The notes: generated by a model from the letters alone, not told the origin. Positions 1,448 to 34,873 are shown, counted from the stretch's first letter. The stretch is DNA of 64,000 nt from Candidatus Micrarchaeota archaeon (GCA_021828295.1 JAKASF010000002.1:407-64406); one strand, 5' to 3'. Numbers and translations: made by a program.

Positions 1448-2728
1448 CTACTTCCTCCACTCTGCTTCCGACTGCTTCGGTGAGTTCTCGGGATTGGAAA
1501 CGAACTCAGCGAAGGCGTCCTCGAGCCTGTCCGGGTTCCCCAGACCTATGAGTGCCGTTTCGCCTCTGCTCAGCTTCATCGCGTCGTTTATTGTTGCTAT
1601 CTCCTCTGGAGTGGCGGCCGCGTGAGGCTTCTTGTTTGTGAATGATACACAGCCGTATTTGCTGAAGAGATCGTGGTGCGGCTTGTCGTCTGTTTTGCCG
1701 CCGTTTAGCTTTATGGCAAACGCGCGGTTCTCGCCGGCTATGCCCCTCATTATCGTGGGGCTCTTGTTGCCTATGAAAACGCCGGTGACGTCGAAGATGG
1801 TGAGATGGTCGAGCACTTTGTTCTTCGTGGCGCGCTGCTGGTGTGCGGAATAGCGGCGCTGGAGCAGGATGCCGGAGCTGATCAGGAGTGCGGCTACCAC
1901 GTAGTACGGCTCGATTGGCGTGCCGAGCATGAGAAACGAGAAGAGTATTGTCATGAACGGCACCGAGAGCGCCGCATTGCCGGTGACCATCGAACCAAGG
2001 ACTTTTATCGCATAGTAGTAGACCATAGTGCCAGCCGCGTATGCGAGCACGCCCAGGAAGAGCAGTGAGATGATCACTACGGGCGTGAATGCTATGCTAA
2101 TGTTGGTTCCGGTGGCAAGCACGATCGCGGATACGGCTATGAACGAGGCGATGTTGAACAGCGCTATCGCGCCAGCGGTATCTACGTTGTACTTGTTCAT
2201 CGCAAGTATCGAGAACGAGCTACAGAGCGCAGCCAACATGAGTGCGCCCACGTAAGGCGCCTGCGCTGCGCTTATGCTGAAGAGCGTTCCGCTGCTGACT
2301 ATCAGGTACACGCCGACGAAACCTATGACTGTTGCGGCGTACTGCGCTCCCTTTACCTTCTGCCTCAGCACAAGCGGGGTGAGCAGCGCAACGAAGATCG
2401 GCCAGGTCCTATAGAGTATGGATCCTATGGAGGGGTTGGTGCCGAGCGTGCCGATTCCAAGGAAGAGCTGCGTCAGCAGGTCGTTTAGCAGCCCTGCGAC
2501 TATGATTATGCCAAGCAGGCGCGGCTGGCGCGTTACGGCCATCAAGCCTCTGCCCCTGTTGAGCGCCAAGCTTATCGCCACAGACGCTATGGTGCCTATG
2601 AGGAAACCGTAGAAGAGCTCTGGCAGTATACCTATCCTGCTGCCTCCTATCTGCAGCACTATCGACCAGAACGATACCTCGACTATGCCCAGCGTGAGTG
2701 CAATCGCTCCTTTGTAAGATGTCTTCAT
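1448..2728 (-). CDS. DMT/EamA-family membrane transporter with a ~130-aa soluble C-terminal domain of unknown family (module 1)
   Basis: About 10 predicted TM helices are followed by IFDVTG...GENRAFAIKL...ALIGLGNPDRLEDAFAEF. It is a paralogue of 33608-34873 with the same tail. Confidence 0.7.
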   Translation of the reverse strand: MKTSYKGAIALTLGIVEVSFWSIVLQIGGSRIGILPELFYGFLIGTIASVAISLALNRGRGLMAVTRQPRLLGIIIVAGLLNDLLTQLFLGIGTLGTNPSIGSILYRTWPIFVALLTPLVLRQKVKGAQYAATVIGFVGVYLIVSSGTLFSISAAQAPYVGALMLAALCSSFSILAMNKYNVDTAGAIALFNIASFIAVSAIVLATGTNISIAFTPVVIISLLFLGVLAYAAGTMVYYYAIKVLGSMVTGNAALSVPFMTILFSFLMLGTPIEPYYVVAALLISSGILLQRRYSAHQQRATKNKVLDHLTIFDVTGVFIGNKSPTIMRGIAGENRAFAIKLNGGKTDDKPHHDLFSKYGCVSFTNKKPHAAATPEEIATINDAMKLSRGETALIGLGNPDRLEDAFAEFVSNPENSPKQSEAEWRK

Positions 2729-2767
2729 CAGTTAGTATTGGTGAATGGCCTATAATAATCATGCATA

Positions 2768-2793
2768 AATCTGGAAATTTGTTTCCATAGATT
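2768..2793. promoter_or_regulatory. imperfect palindrome AATCT-GGAAA-TTTG-TTTCC-AT-AGATT in the divergent promoter region between transporter and regulator
   Basis: Read directly from the sequence. It lies just upstream of a TATA-like ggatttttatacc and of the regulator start. Confidence 0.3.
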
Positions 2794-2827
2794 GCGGATT
2801 TTTATACCTTGTGTGAGCACCCATATC

Positions 2828-3844
2828 ATGGCAGAAGAAGTGCCTATCTTCACAAACAGGGACAGGATGCTACTGATGGAGCTGAGCGCCGATGCGAGGG
2901 CGAGCCTGACGCACCTTGCAAAGGTCGCCGACTGCTCCGTTGCTACGGCAGCGAAACTTGTTGACAGGCTCACCAGGGCATTGGACATAAGGTTCACGCT
3001 GGAGATAGATATGGACAGGCTCGGCTTCCCGGAGAGGCACATATTGATGCTAAAGTTCAGGAGGAAACCGACAGAGGAGTTCCTGAGGGACTTCTTCAAG
3101 AACGACACGTACGCGCAAGACGTATACCTGGCGAAGGGCGACTTCGACCTGCTCGTATTTGCAGCTGCTGACACGCCGATAAACTACATAAAGTGGGAGA
3201 CGGGCCTGGCGGCTGCACTGTCGGATTATGTGCCGGAGCTCAGGCCCTCGGAGTTCGTCTTCCCGCAGCTCGGCTACGTCCCGCTGGGTGACAACTTCGT
3301 CGACTTCATACGCGAGGAGATCAAGACGGACAGGAAGGACAGGCAGATACTCAGGGAGTTGAACAGGAACTCTAGAATAGGCTACAGGGAGCTGGCTCGC
3401 CTCACGGGCATGAACGAGGACACGATAAGGTACAGGGTCTTCAAGCTGGTCAAGAGGAAGATAGTGAGAAGATTTACCGTTGCGGTGCAGAAGCCAGGTT
3501 ACGGCAGCCTCATCGCCTACTTCCTCAGGTACAGGTTCGGCAAGGAGACGACAACGAGCGCTTTCCCGCAGATGCGAAACCGCTACATGAGCGAAGGCGG
3601 GAAGACGCCGCTGTTGAACACCTACCCTATGATAGCCCCGATAAGCGGAAGTTACAGGTCCTTTGGGATGGCCTTCGACAGGGAGTCGAAGCGGTCGCTG
3701 TACGACGCTGTCAAGTGGCACACGATACTGCTCAAGAAGGAGGAGATAATAGAGCGGCATGCGCTCATCACGAAGACCATCAAGGGACTACTTCCGCTCA
3801 GGAACCTTGATCCGAAGGCAAACTACAGGTTCATATGGACATAG
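2828..3844 (+). CDS. tandem (two-unit) Lrp/AsnC-like transcriptional regulator (module 1)
   Basis: Two HTH plus ligand-domain repeats are present (RDRMLLMELSADARASLTHLAK..., DRQILRELNRNSRIGYRELARLTG...). It is homologous to 32511-33509 (KGDFDLL, LG(F/Y)VPL). ATG 2828 is preferred over the TTG at 2792. Confidence 0.7.
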   Translation: MAEEVPIFTNRDRMLLMELSADARASLTHLAKVADCSVATAAKLVDRLTRALDIRFTLEIDMDRLGFPERHILMLKFRRKPTEEFLRDFFKNDTYAQDVYLAKGDFDLLVFAAADTPINYIKWETGLAAALSDYVPELRPSEFVFPQLGYVPLGDNFVDFIREEIKTDRKDRQILRELNRNSRIGYRELARLTGMNEDTIRYRVFKLVKRKIVRRFTVAVQKPGYGSLIAYFLRYRFGKETTTSAFPQMRNRYMSEGGKTPLLNTYPMIAPISGSYRSFGMAFDRESKRSLYDAVKWHTILLKKEEIIERHALITKTIKGLLPLRNLDPKANYRFIWT

Positions 3845-4110
3845 GCGTTTCGACGGCTTTGATGAAGAAATCCGAAATTATTGCAAATAAAATACGAAAA
3901 TAAATAAGGTATTAATATGATTCCAAGCATATTCTCTGCATGGGAAGGGTGTTTCTGGGCAGGTGGCATACCGTGTCTTATCCTGATGCTACTTCTACGA
4001 TCTCATTACCCACTCTCGAGACTCGCGCCCTTGCCTTTCCCATGCCCACCCAATAGGCGGCAGGGAGTCCTATGCGCAACGAAAAAGAGAGAAGCACATC
4101 GCATACTGGA

Positions 4111-4353
4111 ATGGCAAAACCGCTCTTCCTTCTTATAGAACCCAAAGACCTTGGCGATTCCGGAGAGATTGCGAAGAGGATCGCGGATTGCAAAGGCGTC
4201 AAGGAGGTACACCTGACAAGCGGGAATTACGGCTTCGTCGTTTCCGCGAACGCGGGCACCGAGGGCGATGTGAAGCAGATAAGGTCAAACGTAAGAAAAG
4301 CGTCAAAGAGCAGGGCGGTCAAGGTGGCTCTGAGCCATTTTGTTTACAGGTAG
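4111..4353 (+). CDS. stand-alone Lrp/AsnC ligand-binding (RAM) domain protein (module 1)
   Basis: MAKPLFLLIEPKDLGDSGEIAKRIADCKGVKEVHLTSGNYGFVVSANAGTEGDV has a RAM-domain pattern. It is a paralogue of 31942-32250. The start could alternatively be 4072. Confidence 0.6.
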   Translation: MAKPLFLLIEPKDLGDSGEIAKRIADCKGVKEVHLTSGNYGFVVSANAGTEGDVKQIRSNVRKASKSRAVKVALSHFVYR

Positions 4354-4358
4354 AGCCA

Positions 4359-4499
4359 ATGAGGCGCCTATTTTCCGCTTTAATCAGCGATCGTCCCAAA
4401 GCTTCGCAGCCCCCTGAGGGTCTGAAACTGGATGAGGGCAGGCCAGTAAAGTTTGTGCAGGAGAAAGAGAACGTCTGGAGGGTCGTCTACGCTGACTAA
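4359..4499 (+). CDS. 46-aa mini-protein ending ...RPVKFVQEKENVWRVVYAD (module 1)
   Basis: This is the internal ATG of track ORF 4188-4499, 5 nt after the preceding stop. The C-terminal ~34 aa are conserved with 32247-32480. Confidence 0.45.
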   Translation: MRRLFSALISDRPKASQPPEGLKLDEGRPVKFVQEKENVWRVVYAD

Positions 4500-4553: not shown

Positions 4554-4772
4554 ATGAAGACGCTGATGATAGAGGATAGAGTGTACAGAAAACTGCGTGC
4601 GGTCAAAGGCACAAGGAGCTTCAGCAAGCTGCTCGATGCGCTTGTTGAGGAATCGAGGAGTATAAAGAAGGCAAAGCTGCGAAGGGCCTTCGGGACCTTG
4701 AGCAAGGAGAAGGCAGAGGATATTGGGTACGCCATAAATGAGATAAGGAAAAACTTCAAGGTCAGGGTATGA
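4554..4772 (+). CDS. vapB: VapB-type antitoxin
   Basis: This 72-aa protein (MKTLMIEDRVYRKLRAVKGTRSFSKLLDALVEE) is a typical archaeal PIN-partner antitoxin. Its stop overlaps the vapC ATG (ATGA). Confidence 0.65.
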   Translation: MKTLMIEDRVYRKLRAVKGTRSFSKLLDALVEESRSIKKAKLRRAFGTLSKEKAEDIGYAINEIRKNFKVRV

Positions 4773-5164
4773 ATATTTTGCTTGATTCTTCGGCTATAAT
4801 ATCCTACCTCAGAGGAAACGAGGAGCTGCGAAATATCATCGAGTCTGCGGACGAGGTGCTCACAAGCTCGCTGTGCGCATACGAGGTGCTTGAGGGCGAG
4901 AACTATTCCAGAATCAAGAGGAACAGGACCGGGAACGAGGTCGCGACTTTCCTAGAAGACACAACGATTGTTCCACTAGATCGGAAAGACGCGGAGATAG
5001 CGGCTGAAGCGCAGGCAAGGCTGATGGTGAAAGGCCTAGAACAGAACGCAATCGACGTCTTGATCGGAGCCAGCGCTGTGAGAAACGAGGTTGAGCTGAT
5101 CACCAGAGACGGCGACTATGAGGTAATGCAGGAAGTGCTTGGTCTCAAGTTCAGGAAAGTCTGA
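4769..5164 (+). CDS. vapC: PIN-domain ribonuclease toxin VapC
   Basis: The protein is 131 aa. MNILLDSSAIISYL gives the N-terminal acidic D. The other PIN acidic positions are present (E in YEVLEG, D in ITRDGDY). Confidence 0.85.
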   Translation: MNILLDSSAIISYLRGNEELRNIIESADEVLTSSLCAYEVLEGENYSRIKRNRTGNEVATFLEDTTIVPLDRKDAEIAAEAQARLMVKGLEQNAIDVLIGASAVRNEVELITRDGDYEVMQEVLGLKFRKV

Positions 5165-31941: not shown

Positions 31942-32250
31942 CTACTTCTGAGTCGCAGGGGCGCACAGGTAGACATAATGGCCTTTGGCCGAGCTCACCC
32001 TTGAACTTCCGAAGGAGGTCTTCACCCTCCTCGCAACTTCTTCAGAGCCGAGTTCGCCATCTTCTGCCACGGACACCACGAAGCCGAAGTCGCCGCTTGT
32101 GATAATCACCTTCCTCACTCCCCTGCATGCGGCTATCCGCCTAGCGACCTCGTGCGAATTTTTTCTTACATCAGGATGCAGTAGCAAGAAGCTCTCACTT
32201 GCTGTCCTCATTCGTATGTTTCCGTTTCCCAACCAATCGCCTCTAATCAA
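31942..32250 (-). CDS. stand-alone Lrp/AsnC ligand-binding (RAM) domain protein (module 2)
   Basis: FLLLHPDVRKNSHEVARRIAACRGVRKVIITSGDFGFVVSVAEDGE is present. It is a paralogue of 4111-4353. The start could alternatively be ATG 32211. Confidence 0.6.
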   Translation of the reverse strand: MIRGDWLGNGNIRMRTASESFLLLHPDVRKNSHEVARRIAACRGVRKVIITSGDFGFVVSVAEDGELGSEEVARRVKTSFGSSRVSSAKGHYVYLCAPATQK

Positions 32251-32480
32251 TCAGCGTAAACAACCCGCCAGACGTTCTCTTTCTCCTGTATCCACTTTAC
32301 CGGCCTCTTGTCATCGGATTGGGTGGAGGTGGGCTGCTTAGCCTTCGGGTGGGGAATGCTAATGCTGGGGTCAATAGGATAGTAGCCGTTCTGAGAACGA
32401 ACAAAACCCATGCCAGCCCACGGAGATAGAATATGCATCTGCTGATTTATAAATATTTTACTTTTTTTAAATAAGTTCAT
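32247..32480 (-). CDS. 77-aa mini-protein ending ...RPVKWIQEKENVWRVVYAD (module 2)
   Basis: Its C-terminal ~34 aa are conserved with 4359-4499. Its stop overlaps the start of 31942-32250. Confidence 0.5.
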   Translation of the reverse strand: MNLFKKSKIFINQQMHILSPWAGMGFVRSQNGYYPIDPSISIPHPKAKQPTSTQSDDKRPVKWIQEKENVWRVVYAD

Positions 32481-32510
32481 ATATTTTTCGGAAATATAAA
32501 ATCAGAGGGC

Positions 32511-33509
32511 ATGCTTAACAAGACGTCTAGGATGCTGCTTAAAGAACTATGCACGAACGCCAGGATTAAACTGCCAGCTTTGTCGAAGAAGTTTGGGATA
32601 TCCAGATACCTTTTAGCGCGGGAAATCAGGAACCTGGAAAAGGAATTGGAGTTGCATTACACGTTGGAACTAGACAACGCAAAACTCGGCTTCGGCACAA
32701 CGCACGTCATGCATCTGAAGTTCGTGAAGAGGCCCAGCTCTGAAACGCTCAAGGGAATCCTCAACAAAATACCCTCCATACAGCTTGCGTTGCTTACAAA
32801 AGGCGACTTTGACCTTCTCTGCTTTGCAGTGACCAGGACACCGGTTGAATACTCGCAGATAGAGATAGCGCTCCAGCTTCTTCTGGAGGAATACGGCGCA
32901 AAGGTTAAGTCTGCGGAGGTGACGCTTGCGCGCCTCGGCTTTGTGCCGCTCGACAGCAATCTGATAAGCAGGTCAGCACTTGAGAGCGAATACAAAGAGG
33001 TGCTCATCAGGCTGAACGCCAACTCGCATGCCAAGATCAGCGAGATAAGCAGGTCCATAGGTATAAGCGATGACCTGGTGCGGTACTATATAGCAAAAAT
33101 GGAGCGCGAAGGGATAATCAAGAGATATACCGCTGTGGTAGGCAAGCCGAACACGGGATTCACCATAGCCTACCTTGCGAATTATGCTGTAAGGGAGAAC
33201 CTCCAGAGCAGGATAGACAAGGAAAGGAGAGAGATAATCTTCACAGACGATGAGCAGAGCGATGTAAATGACTTCCAGTCTATGTTTTCAACAACAGGCA
33301 GTGAGCAAACGCTTAACATTGCGACATACAGGAACAGGAAGTATGGACTTGAGCACAGCGTGAAAGCGCATAATAGAATTTACGCGACGGACAGGCCGGA
33401 GGTTGTGTCAGCTGAGATTATAAAACCAGTAAAAGGTGTCATGCCGTTCAGATATCTCAACGTAAAAGAGGTATACGACACCTCCAACTGGCCTCTCGAG
33501 TTCTCCTAG
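32511..33509 (+). CDS. tandem (two-unit) Lrp/AsnC-like transcriptional regulator (module 2)
   Basis: Two HTH plus RAM units are present (SRMLLKELCTNARIKLPALSKKFGIS..., EVLIRLNANSHAKISEISRSIGIS...). It is a homologue of 2828-3844. Confidence 0.7.
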   Translation: MLNKTSRMLLKELCTNARIKLPALSKKFGISRYLLAREIRNLEKELELHYTLELDNAKLGFGTTHVMHLKFVKRPSSETLKGILNKIPSIQLALLTKGDFDLLCFAVTRTPVEYSQIEIALQLLLEEYGAKVKSAEVTLARLGFVPLDSNLISRSALESEYKEVLIRLNANSHAKISEISRSIGISDDLVRYYIAKMEREGIIKRYTAVVGKPNTGFTIAYLANYAVRENLQSRIDKERREIIFTDDEQSDVNDFQSMFSTTGSEQTLNIATYRNRKYGLEHSVKAHNRIYATDRPEVVSAEIIKPVKGVMPFRYLNVKEVYDTSNWPLEFS

Positions 33510-33569
33510 CCTGGGACCAGCCTCGGCATATTTTAAAAATACGAATTTTTGGTTAATATTTTTTAAATT

Positions 33570-33599
33570 TTGGAAGGATTTAAAACGGAATCCTTCCAA
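33570..33599 (+). promoter_or_regulatory. perfect 11-bp inverted repeat ttggaaggatt-N8-aatccttccaa, 8 nt upstream of the transporter ATG
   Basis: The arms are at 33570-33580 and 33589-33599, read directly. It could be an operator or a 5'-leader hairpin. Confidence 0.5.
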
Positions 33600-33607
33600 T
33601 CAAAATC

Positions 33608-34873
33608 ATGAGAATACAGGTTCACGGCTACGTGCTGCTCTTCAGCGCGCTGATGTTCACTGCGATAACACCGATAGCGTACGTGCTGGGCAACGGCATA
33701 AACCCCATAGCGCTAATGCTTCTCGTCTCGCTTGCCGGAACCCTCATATCGTTTGCGCTCTCCTTTGCCAGGGGCACGCTTCATCACGTCAAAACATACT
33801 TTACAACAAGGAACGGTGCGTTTGCGATACTCTCCTTCGGGATACTCGCCTACACCCTCCTCTCGCTGATTTTTAGCTATGTAACCCACTATGTGAACGC
33901 CGATCTCGTGGCGGTGGTCTACAGGTCGTGGCCGCTCATGCTGATACTGATGGCGCCGGTGCTCATGCGCGAGCGCATGACAAAGTATGATGGCCTGGGA
34001 GTGATTATCGGTTTTTCAAGCCTCGCCGTCACGCTTGTCGGAGGCACAGCAATAAGCATACCGGAGCAGTATCTGCCATTCGTGCTGCTGCTTCTGCTCG
34101 GCGCATTCTTCGACGCATTCGTTTCCGGAGTTTCAAAGAAGTATAACTATGAGCTCACAAGCTCTATATTTGCTTACAACGCGGTTTCGTTTGCAATCTT
34201 CTTGCCGCTGGCCCTTCTGACAGGCTCTCTCAACTTCTCAGGCTTCGGTGCAAACACCGCTTTGGGCGTCGTCTTGCTCGGAGCGGTGCAGAATGTGCTG
34301 CTTACCTTCCTGTTCGTCGCCTCTTTTAGGCGGGTAAGGACCTCGATAGCCAGCAATGTCTTCATAGTCAGCCCGTTTTTCACAATGTTGCTCAGCGCTT
34401 TGTTCCTGAGTACTCCAATCGAACCCTACTACCTTGTGGTGGCGTTCGGAGTAGCGTTTGGCATACTTATACAGCACATGCAACCGAGAGCTGCAAACCG
34501 TGTGACTAAGAGGAGAAACTTGGCCATATTCGATGTAACAGGCACGTTCCTAGATAACCCAAACCCTGAAATATCCCGTTGCATAACCGGCGATGGCCGC
34601 GCCTTTGCGATAAGGATAAGCAAAAGCAGTTTCGATGAACAGTTGCACAGTCAGATATTCAAGAGCCGTTATTGCTTGGTGTTTACCAATGACGCGCCAC
34701 ATCAGGACGCACGGGGCGAGGAGATGCGCCTTATAGGAGGGGCTATGGCTCTCAAGAAGGGGGAGGCTGCGCTCATCGGTATGGGTGACCCTGATGAGCT
34801 AGAGGCAGCATTCGATGAATTTCTCAGAGCCCAACCTGGCGCAGTAAAGCAAGAATCCGCCTTTCAAGCCTAG
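33608..34873 (+). CDS. DMT/EamA-family membrane transporter with the same unknown C-terminal domain (module 2)
   Basis: The multi-TM N-terminal part is followed by the tail IFDVTG...GDGRAFAIRI...ALIGMGDPDELEAAFDEF. It is a paralogue of 1448-2728. Confidence 0.7.
   Translation: MRIQVHGYVLLFSALMFTAITPIAYVLGNGINPIALMLLVSLAGTLISFALSFARGTLHHVKTYFTTRNGAFAILSFGILAYTLLSLIFSYVTHYVNADLVAVVYRSWPLMLILMAPVLMRERMTKYDGLGVIIGFSSLAVTLVGGTAISIPEQYLPFVLLLLLGAFFDAFVSGVSKKYNYELTSSIFAYNAVSFAIFLPLALLTGSLNFSGFGANTALGVVLLGAVQNVLLTFLFVASFRRVRTSIASNVFIVSPFFTMLLSALFLSTPIEPYYLVVAFGVAFGILIQHMQPRAANRVTKRRNLAIFDVTGTFLDNPNPEISRCITGDGRAFAIRISKSSFDEQLHSQIFKSRYCLVFTNDAPHQDARGEEMRLIGGAMALKKGEAALIGMGDPDELEAAFDEFLRAQPGAVKQESAFQA

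Follow-up and report, generated by a model that had tools for sequence, protein, structure and literature searches.

A predicted double Lrp regulator and EamA-GAD permease, linked in Micrarchaeota genomes and joined by a facultative cassette

Introduction

Do four types of gene that occur together twice within a short stretch of a Micrarchaeota genome belong to one system, and what might such a system do? The stretch, called the window here, consists of 64,000 nucleotides from a Candidatus Micrarchaeota archaeon (GCA_021828295.1, JAKASF010000002.1:407-64406). At 1448-4499 it holds genes for an EamA/DMT transporter with a C-terminal tail, a regulator with two Lrp/AsnC units in one chain, a RAM domain on its own, and a mini-protein of 46 residues. 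The original prediction, made from the sequence of the window, took these to be a four-gene module of unknown function, for example a ligand-sensing export system, and pointed to the same gene types at 31942-34873. Micrarchaeota, like other DPANN archaea, depend on a host and possess very few regulators, and the ways in which they sense nutrients and take them up are largely uncharted.

The neighbourhood is a double-Lrp hub with spokes and not a four-gene block. One spoke is a transporter that invariably adjoins the double Lrp, while the other, a cassette of the RAM-only and mini-protein genes, is facultative. The preferred reading, with a probability of roughly 0.55, is that a ligand-sensing double Lrp acts with a permease and that the RAM-only protein and mini-protein serve as modulators, which would make this a familiar type of regulator-and-target system with a new architecture.

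Source genome and recurrence of the gene set

The source genome (G000) is a metagenome-assembled genome (MAG) of 768,693 bp in 32 contigs that is 88% complete, and the window corresponds to C16:407-64406. Occurrence of the protein families was counted in a phylum sample of 401 genomes, and an RNA motif was sought in 248 genomes of the window's order. A check of open reading frames (ORFs) found the four gene types of copy 1 at the positions and on the strands originally given, and it confirmed that all four recur at 31942-34873. The two copies are old paralogues whose similarity is far beyond chance: the EamA proteins including the tail are 33% identical (E 2e-64), the tandem Lrp proteins 32% over 322 residues (E 6e-52), the RAM-only proteins 41% (E 2e-17), and the mini-proteins 66% over their last 35 residues (E 6e-15).

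The same genome has two more sets of tandem Lrp, mini-protein and RAM-only genes, on contigs C19 and C32, and these adjoin a GNAT acetyltransferase gene, not a transporter. A third pair of transporter and tandem Lrp is found on C2. In all there are four copies of the mini-protein and four matches to the transporter tail, one of them on contig C3. This contig (4,652 bp) carries an EamA-GAD tail, a Rieske protein, an lplB-like gene and lplA in the order seen in the first 2.7 kb of the window, and its GAD tail has about 70% protein identity to that of copy 1. The contig probably stems from a strain variant that was binned together with the genome, and numbers of copies taken from this MAG should therefore be treated with caution. 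C3 was considered as the third transporter copy and rejected as a strain-variant duplicate of the window's start; the true third copy is the one on C2.

Linkage in other genomes

Genes for the double Lrp and the EamA-GAD transporter are found side by side throughout the lineage. A search from the double Lrp collected 16 loci, all in Micrarchaeota MAGs (one of them labelled Planctomycetota), and EamA-GAD adjoins the regulator in 12 of these, mostly divergent and upstream. When the search starts from the tail, matches occur in 115 of the 401 genomes, with the strong ones confined to the window's order, and every one of the 29 EamA-GAD loci in other genomes has a double Lrp next to it, divergent in 28 cases. 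The mini-protein is linked to the same regulator: at 22 of 29 mini-protein loci a double Lrp lies no more than 1.5 kb away, and the loci that lack one are mostly at contig ends or behind an EamA-GAD gene. A RAM-only gene is present at 19 of these 29 loci and may precede or follow the mini-protein gene.

By our own arithmetic, eight genes with about 4 kb each in 770 kb would give a chance adjacency of about 4% within ±1.5 kb. The observed counts are far above this, showing that the neighbourhood is real, and the linkage outside this genome suggests that the families form functional neighbourhoods. The proposal that the synteny reflects no functional coupling, the four families simply being abundant in small genomes, can draw on the compactness of these genomes and on the multi-copy nature of the families. 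It is hardly credible against adjacency of 29/29 and 22/29, and the linkage also survives several rearrangements and is seen in two families of the order.

Linkage of the four families beyond this genome had been anticipated and is found, while the idea of one four-gene unit does not stand, as two separable associations share the double Lrp as their hub. The four families occur together in at least three arrangements, those of window copies 1 and 2 and that of L014. At L072 (the same locus as L039) the transporter, mini-protein and RAM genes share one orientation, and the double Lrp lies upstream of them and is divergent. The pair of EamA-GAD and double Lrp is invariant, whereas the RAM and mini-protein cassette is facultative.

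The tandem regulator

Sequence comparison identifies the tandem protein as a true single-chain double Lrp with the layout HTH-RAM-HTH-RAM, in agreement with the two complete Lrp/AsnC units originally described. Both copies (332-338 residues) have two AsnC-type helix-turn-helix (HTH) matches to Pfam PF13404/PF13412, and both units can be aligned over nearly their full length with profile A11. Residues 7-114 of unit 1 align to residues 2-109 of LrpA (1i1g), and residues 167-315 of unit 2 align to residues 2-139 of ST1022. Unit 1 matches LrpA, LrpC and PH0061, and unit 2 matches ST1022, PH0140 and FL11, with E values from 1e-15 to 1e-8. The RAM model of Pfam, AsnC_trans_reg, gives no match on the tandem proteins.

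NirDL/AhbAB-type enzymes (siroheme decarboxylase) have the same tandem HTH-RAM layout in about 310-340 residues, and the tandem proteins might accordingly be such enzymes, or chaperones, and not transcription factors. The structures 4czc and 4ch7 are among the weak fold matches, and the NCBIfam AhbB model gives weak matches (E 0.04 and 7.5e-4; 13.6 and 19.2 bits against a cut-off of 125). However, A11 matches AhbA/B (4czd) with an E value of only 0.004, far weaker than its matches to Lrp regulators, and no haem-pathway context is seen here. Eight paralogues beside different target-like genes are also unlike one biosynthetic enzyme. An enzymatic or chaperone role is thus very improbable.

The eight double-Lrp paralogues are found in a genome of 0.77 Mb, and all eight have two units in a chain of 332-462 residues. 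Twelve of the 13 AsnC-type HTH matches in a genome-wide PF13404 scan lie inside these eight ORFs; the thirteenth is weak and lies in an ORF of 381 residues on C18. The scan detected no single-unit classical Lrp in this genome. Across the phylum sample double Lrp proteins are present in 162 genomes, of which 156 belong to the window's order, usually with several copies each. It appears that the covalent double unit is the dominant Lrp-type form of the lineage.

The divergent control region between the permease and the double Lrp has a mean column identity of 78% with the corresponding regions of L011, L012 and L013, although the L013 tandem protein is only 55% identical. A TATA-like sequence, TTTTATAC, lies about 24 nucleotides upstream of the ATG at 2828, and an AT-rich box is present on the opposite strand. 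A search of the intergenic regions for palindromic operators found weak repeats only.

A conserved C-terminal tail follows the second RAM domain (G.LP.R.L..K..Y...W; for example at 3775-3844 in the window) and is lacking in classical Lrp. There is a loose resemblance between the final strand of this tail (NYRFIWT) and the WRVVYAD strand of the mini-protein. The double Lrp on C19 (C19:55091-56479, equal to L008:1592-2980 on the minus strand) has about 105 additional residues at its N-terminus, as do many orthologues of 380-400 residues, and this extension has no match in Pfam.

The transporter and its GAD tail

The transporter was described as an EamA/DMT protein with a cytoplasmic C-terminal tail, and the two EamA repeats and separate tail domain agree with this. 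Both copies match Pfam EamA (PF00892) in two stretches with E values from 1e-17 to 3e-18 (2.8e-18 in copy 1). In copy 1 the permease occupies residues ~1-300 and the GAD domain residues ~303-420 (DNA 1448-1822). NCBIfam bears out the Pfam assignments, and neither of its related models is matched at the equivalog level (YddG, 35.6 against 300 bits; 2A78, 31.9 against 230 bits). A protein in the same cluster as copy 2 bears the public name "DMT family transporter [Candidatus Micrarchaeota archaeon]".

The tail, which could not at first be assigned to a family, is a divergent GAD domain according to sequence profiles and a predicted structure; this is the insertion domain of GatE and of bacterial AspRS. 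Profile A4, built from 16 tails, finds the insertion domain of GatE in the PDB over positions 9-113 of 124 (1zq1_C, E 7e-8; 2d6f_C, E 1e-6). An AlphaFold2 model of the tail has a predicted local distance difference test score (pLDDT) of 83, and its best Foldseek matches are GatE, with a template modelling (TM) score of 0.71, and Escherichia coli AspRS, with 0.70, followed by more AspRS structures. All of the top 13 matches are GatE or AspRS (TMq 0.56-0.71).

Among 1.84 billion representative proteins, A4 matches 116 clusters. About 90 of these consist of proteins of 405-435 residues that are matched at residues ~305-420, and the ones sampled are EamA proteins. Two remote, long matches (P0110 and P0115) are GatE, and the residues matched coincide with the Pfam GAD domain. 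The Pfam GAD model itself (PF02938) is not significant on the tails, with a best E value of 0.036 and matches in 2 of the 16 members. Sequence profile, predicted fold and reciprocal matches agree in identifying the tail as a GAD domain, and the distribution of the clusters together with the GAD matches makes this a divergent GAD subfamily essentially confined to the EamA fusion. In GatE and AspRS the domain is an insertion in a tRNA-dependent enzyme, while in these proteins a domain of the same fold is attached to the C-terminal end of a transporter, which gives the GAD domain a second, non-tRNA context for study. Most simply, it may act as a cytoplasmic sensor or docking domain.

The RAM-only protein and the mini-protein

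The RAM-only protein was described as a RAM domain on its own, and matches of its profile (A5) bear this out, with no DNA-binding domain present. In the PDB the profile matches the RAM domain of FL11 (E 3e-4), DM1 (2e-3) and STS042 (3e-3). Copy 1 matches Pfam AsnC_trans_reg with an E value of 1e-4, and the family can be aligned with hhalign to the first RAM domain of the double Lrp. Members share a conserved signature, V.EV..T.G.YGF.V, and bear N-terminal arms rich in arginine and lysine. For copy 1 the start at ATG 4072 is more likely than that at 4111, because GGGAG is found 5 nucleotides upstream and, among public gene calls, it is the 93-residue form that represents the cluster.

The mini-protein belongs to a family without relatives in profile searches of Pfam, NCBIfam, PDB, PHROG and PADLOC, and it has no match in the double Lrp (hhalign) or in viral contigs. 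It consists of a variable basic N-terminus and an invariant block, RPVK..G.N.WRVVYAD. The 36 sequences collected share RPV[KR].[VI]..G.N.W[RQ][VI]V[YW]AD, and the stop codon usually follows directly. Nucleotide variation is mostly at third codon positions (codon-position entropy 0.66/0.47/1.46), showing that the gene is a coding sequence under purifying selection; it is a real orphan gene. The family is present in 56 of the 401 genomes with 1-7 copies each, and all but one weak match are in the window's order. Several copies are found, unnamed, in public gene calls, including the 63-residue form of copy 2, for which ATG 32438 or 32411 is the more likely start.

The structured RNA motif

The spacer of 267 bp between the double Lrp and RAM genes of copy 1 contains a conserved block of about 115 nucleotides that has the features of a structured RNA. 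The block shares 82% identity with that of L034, against 51% and 61% for the flanking proteins, and is preceded at a distance of about 20 nucleotides by a conserved TATA-like box (3897-3916). RNAalifold predicts a closing helix of 14 bp with inner hairpins, and most copies have a CCCACCC tract 3' of this helix. The covariance models R1 and R2, derived from the alignment, locate the motif in ten of the collected loci, each time directly 5' of the gene with which the cassette begins and on the cassette strand. A scan of whole genomes across the order finds it in nine genomes.

In nine sequences 13 of the 14 closing-helix pairs have compensatory changes on both sides. Paired cells make up 87%, against 38-54% with slid partners, and none of 500 shuffles reaches the observed values, with the proviso that the alignment had itself been fitted to the model. 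The cassette strand contains G-U pairs, which is consistent with an RNA and not with a DNA palindrome. Rfam has no match to the block at the gathering score, only chance-level C/D-box matches outside the element (E >1). An ORF of 38 codons at 3940-4056 ("GRWHTVSYPD") was considered as a second mini-like gene and rejected as coding sequence: differences at the three codon positions number 13, 13 and 5, with 0 synonymous and 18 non-synonymous codon changes. Two copies of the motif, on C32 and at L095, are located beside a double-Lrp gene with no detectable cassette. Consequently the motif may be a separate small RNA and not only a cassette leader.

Proposed mechanism and the standing of the cassette

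In the preferred reading the double Lrp would be a covalently linked Lrp "dimer" that binds DNA and is the main small-molecule-responsive transcription factor of the lineage. Each paralogue would control the genes that adjoin it, whether for a permease or for a GNAT protein. The double Lrp and the DMT permease would share a control region, divergent and of about 100 bp in copy 1 and short and tandem in copy 2, from which the regulator would switch the permease on or off. The RAM domains probably sense an amino-acid-like metabolite. The cytoplasmic GAD domain could add control of the permease at the protein level by binding a ligand or partner.

The role suggested for the RAM-only protein is based on analogy, and for mixed oligomers of the free RAM protein and the tandem regulator, as originally proposed, there is a published precedent. 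In Pyrococcus horikoshii the stand-alone RAM protein DM1 and the full-length FL11 form hetero-octamers in vitro, and ligands bind at the interfaces between RAM dimers (PMC2995911). The RAM-only protein probably joins or competes in RAM-mediated assemblies in a similar way. The mini-protein, whose invariant block is read as a beta-hairpin, may be a lineage-specific partner of the double Lrp, the RAM protein or both, and the RNA of about 115 nucleotides may be a cassette leader or a companion small RNA. All of these contacts, between proteins or of proteins with RNA, are put forward as candidates, like the DNA binding and the ligand; what the analysis establishes is the identity of the domains, the linkage and copy numbers of the genes, selection on the mini-protein and covariation in the RNA.

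The direction of transport implied by the term export system is a guess and is not supported as stated. The host of the genes is a genome-reduced symbiont, and import is more likely than export.

Several observations weigh against this mechanism. In L012, the closest relative (tandem protein 86% identical), lpd comes directly after the double Lrp and the RAM and mini-protein genes are absent. Within the source genome the closest pair of double Lrp proteins is copies 1 and 4 (44%), while the closest pair of RAM proteins is copies 2 and 4 (62%), whose tandem proteins are 29% identical. The identities of neighbouring double Lrp and RAM proteins at 23 loci have a Spearman correlation of 0.11, and between L041 and L045 the tandem fragments are 99% identical but the RAM proteins only 64%. 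A specific pair should track better, so the lack of correlation weakens the case for tightly co-evolving partners. The RAM-only copies score 22.5 and 17.1 bits, below the Pfam cut-off of 25. L014 has a natural in-frame read-through from mini-protein to RAM across a TAG codon, and when this was folded as one chain with a block alignment, the hairpin had a pLDDT of ~60-69 and no interpretable contact; Foldseek gave weak RAM matches only. The function of the GAD domain is, to our knowledge, obscure even in AspRS and GatE.

The absence of the cassette in L012 and its discordant phylogeny are the main support for a different view, in which the RAM and mini-protein genes with the upstream RNA are a semi-autonomous, exchangeable cassette with a function of its own, as opposed to a regulator subunit. 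Between the double Lrp and lpd lies a variable site for cassettes. In the window it holds the RAM and mini-protein genes and a VapBC pair (4554-5164), in L011 a mini-protein gene only, and VapB and VapC are absent from this slot in both L011 and L012. Such a cassette might be an RNA-binding, ligand-responsive post-transcriptional switch or an addiction-like pair, and its location could mean that the neighbouring double Lrp controls it or that these are permissive spots for insertion. The occurrence of both gene orders, the multiple copies of the mini-protein gene within a genome, the basic arms of the RAM-only proteins, and the presence of the RNA motif with the cassette regardless of the orientation of the double Lrp are consistent with this view.

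On the other hand, 22 of 29 mini-protein loci are still beside a double Lrp, and the RAM domain within the regulator itself is a homologue of the RAM-only protein. The RNA motif is also found beside double-Lrp genes that have no cassette. Neither the RAM-only protein nor the mini-protein matches toxin, antitoxin, defence or phage families in Pfam, PADLOC and PHROG, and a scan with the mini-protein found no copy in viral contigs. An independent cassette is a possible but unlikely explanation.

A bolder scheme is a long shot. Here the usual Lrp network would have been replaced in Micrarchaeales by the lineage-specific double-Lrp switch, and the RAM-only protein with its arginine-rich arm, the mini-protein and the RNA would form a ligand-responsive ribonucleoprotein comparable to TRAP and anti-TRAP that controls the regulator or the translation of its own operon. 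The GAD permease would then tie the uptake of host metabolites to the state of tRNA charging and amidation.

Comparison with known systems

The main parts of the double-Lrp system are of known kinds, and their interest comes from the arrangement, its conservation across the lineage, and two orphan elements. Proteins of the FL11/DM1 type are the best PDB matches for the double Lrp and the RAM-only protein. FL11 (PH1519) and DM1 of P. horikoshii OT3 likewise combine an AsnC-type winged HTH and a RAM domain with a separate RAM-only protein of 75-100 residues. Here, in contrast, two Lrp units are fused and followed by a C-terminal tail, single-unit Lrp is undetected in the genome, and the RAM-only gene is linked to the regulator gene, encodes basic arms, and is accompanied by the orphan mini-protein and the RNA. 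Classical Lrp has one HTH and RAM unit per chain of about 140-170 residues and forms non-covalent dimers, while in the Micrarchaeota protein two units are covalently joined.

For the pair of regulator and permease, the nearest parallel is Lrp-brnFE of Corynebacterium glutamicum, in which an Lrp-type regulator is divergent from an amino acid exporter. YddG, RhtA and EamA of E. coli are DMT exporters. As in Lrp-brnFE, regulator and permease share a divergent control region, and as in YddG, RhtA and EamA the permease is of the DMT/EamA superfamily. Unlike those systems, the Micrarchaeota permease has a C-terminal GAD domain and is not a YddG equivalog. The literature searched describes neither the double Lrp, the EamA-GAD fusion, the mini-protein nor the RNA motif. 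The lineage adds an invariant partnership between a double Lrp and a transporter of new architecture, a family of orphan mini-proteins, and a structured RNA so far undescribed.

Table 1. Positions of the genes and elements discussed. Positions without a prefix refer to the window, those prefixed C to contigs of the source genome G000, and those prefixed L to collected loci.
Feature	Position	Strand	Basis
EamA-GAD permease, copy 1, 426 aa	1448-2728	-	Pfam EamA; tail profile and fold
Divergent control region of permease and double Lrp	2729-2827		conserved among orthologues; putative promoter and operator
Predicted double Lrp (HTH-RAM-HTH-RAM), copy 1, 338 aa	2828-3844	+	two AsnC-type HTH; profile A11
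Structured RNA motif, ~115 nt	3937-4055	+	covariance models R1 and R2; covariation
RAM-only protein, copy 1, 93 aa from 4072 (80 aa from 4111)	4072-4353	+	sub-threshold Pfam match; profile A5
Mini-protein, copy 1, 46 aa, C-terminal end RPVKFVQEKENVWRVVYAD	4359-4499	+	family conservation; codon-position entropy
RAM-only protein, copy 2	31942-32250	-	41% identity to copy 1, 62% to C32 copy
Mini-protein, copy 2, 63 aa from ATG 32438 (ORF open to 32480)	32247-32438	-	C-terminal similarity to copy 1
Predicted double Lrp, copy 2	32511-33509	+	similarity to copy 1; two HTH motifs
EamA-GAD permease, copy 2	33608-34873	+	similarity to copy 1 through the tail
gatE, G000	C2:17502-19205	+	pair with the next row
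EamA-GAD, G000	C2:19368-20675	-	pair with gatE
gatE, L024	L024:2535-4565		pair with the next row
EamA-GAD, L024	L024:4575-5858		pair with gatE
RNA motif copy, G000	C32:11747-11856	-	
RNA motif copy	L034:747-862	-	
RNA motif copy	L089:1499-1617	+	
RNA motif copy	L022:5550-5654	-	
RNA motif copy	L031:1025-1140		
RNA motif copy	L038:994-1109		
RNA motif copies	L051; L047; L032; L029		

Neighbouring genes and further paralogues

In three genomes (G000, L024 and L076) gatE lies tail-to-tail with one of the paralogous EamA-GAD genes. The possibility that the GAD tail arose recently from the GatE of this genome was considered and rejected because the similarity is weak, even though gatE adjoins the third EamA-GAD gene; the GAD domains of the tail-to-tail gatE and permease are not especially similar. 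The gatE neighbourhood hints at a link with glutamate and glutamine metabolism but proves nothing.

Directly after the mini-protein gene of copy 1 are a VapB-like antitoxin gene (4554-4772, plus strand) and a gene for a PIN-domain VapC toxin (4769-5164, plus strand). On contig C15 two double-Lrp paralogues stand by themselves, with no transporter, RAM-only or mini-protein gene, and are arranged tail-to-tail only 8 bp apart (C15:6927-7961 on the plus strand and C15:7970-9112 on the minus strand).

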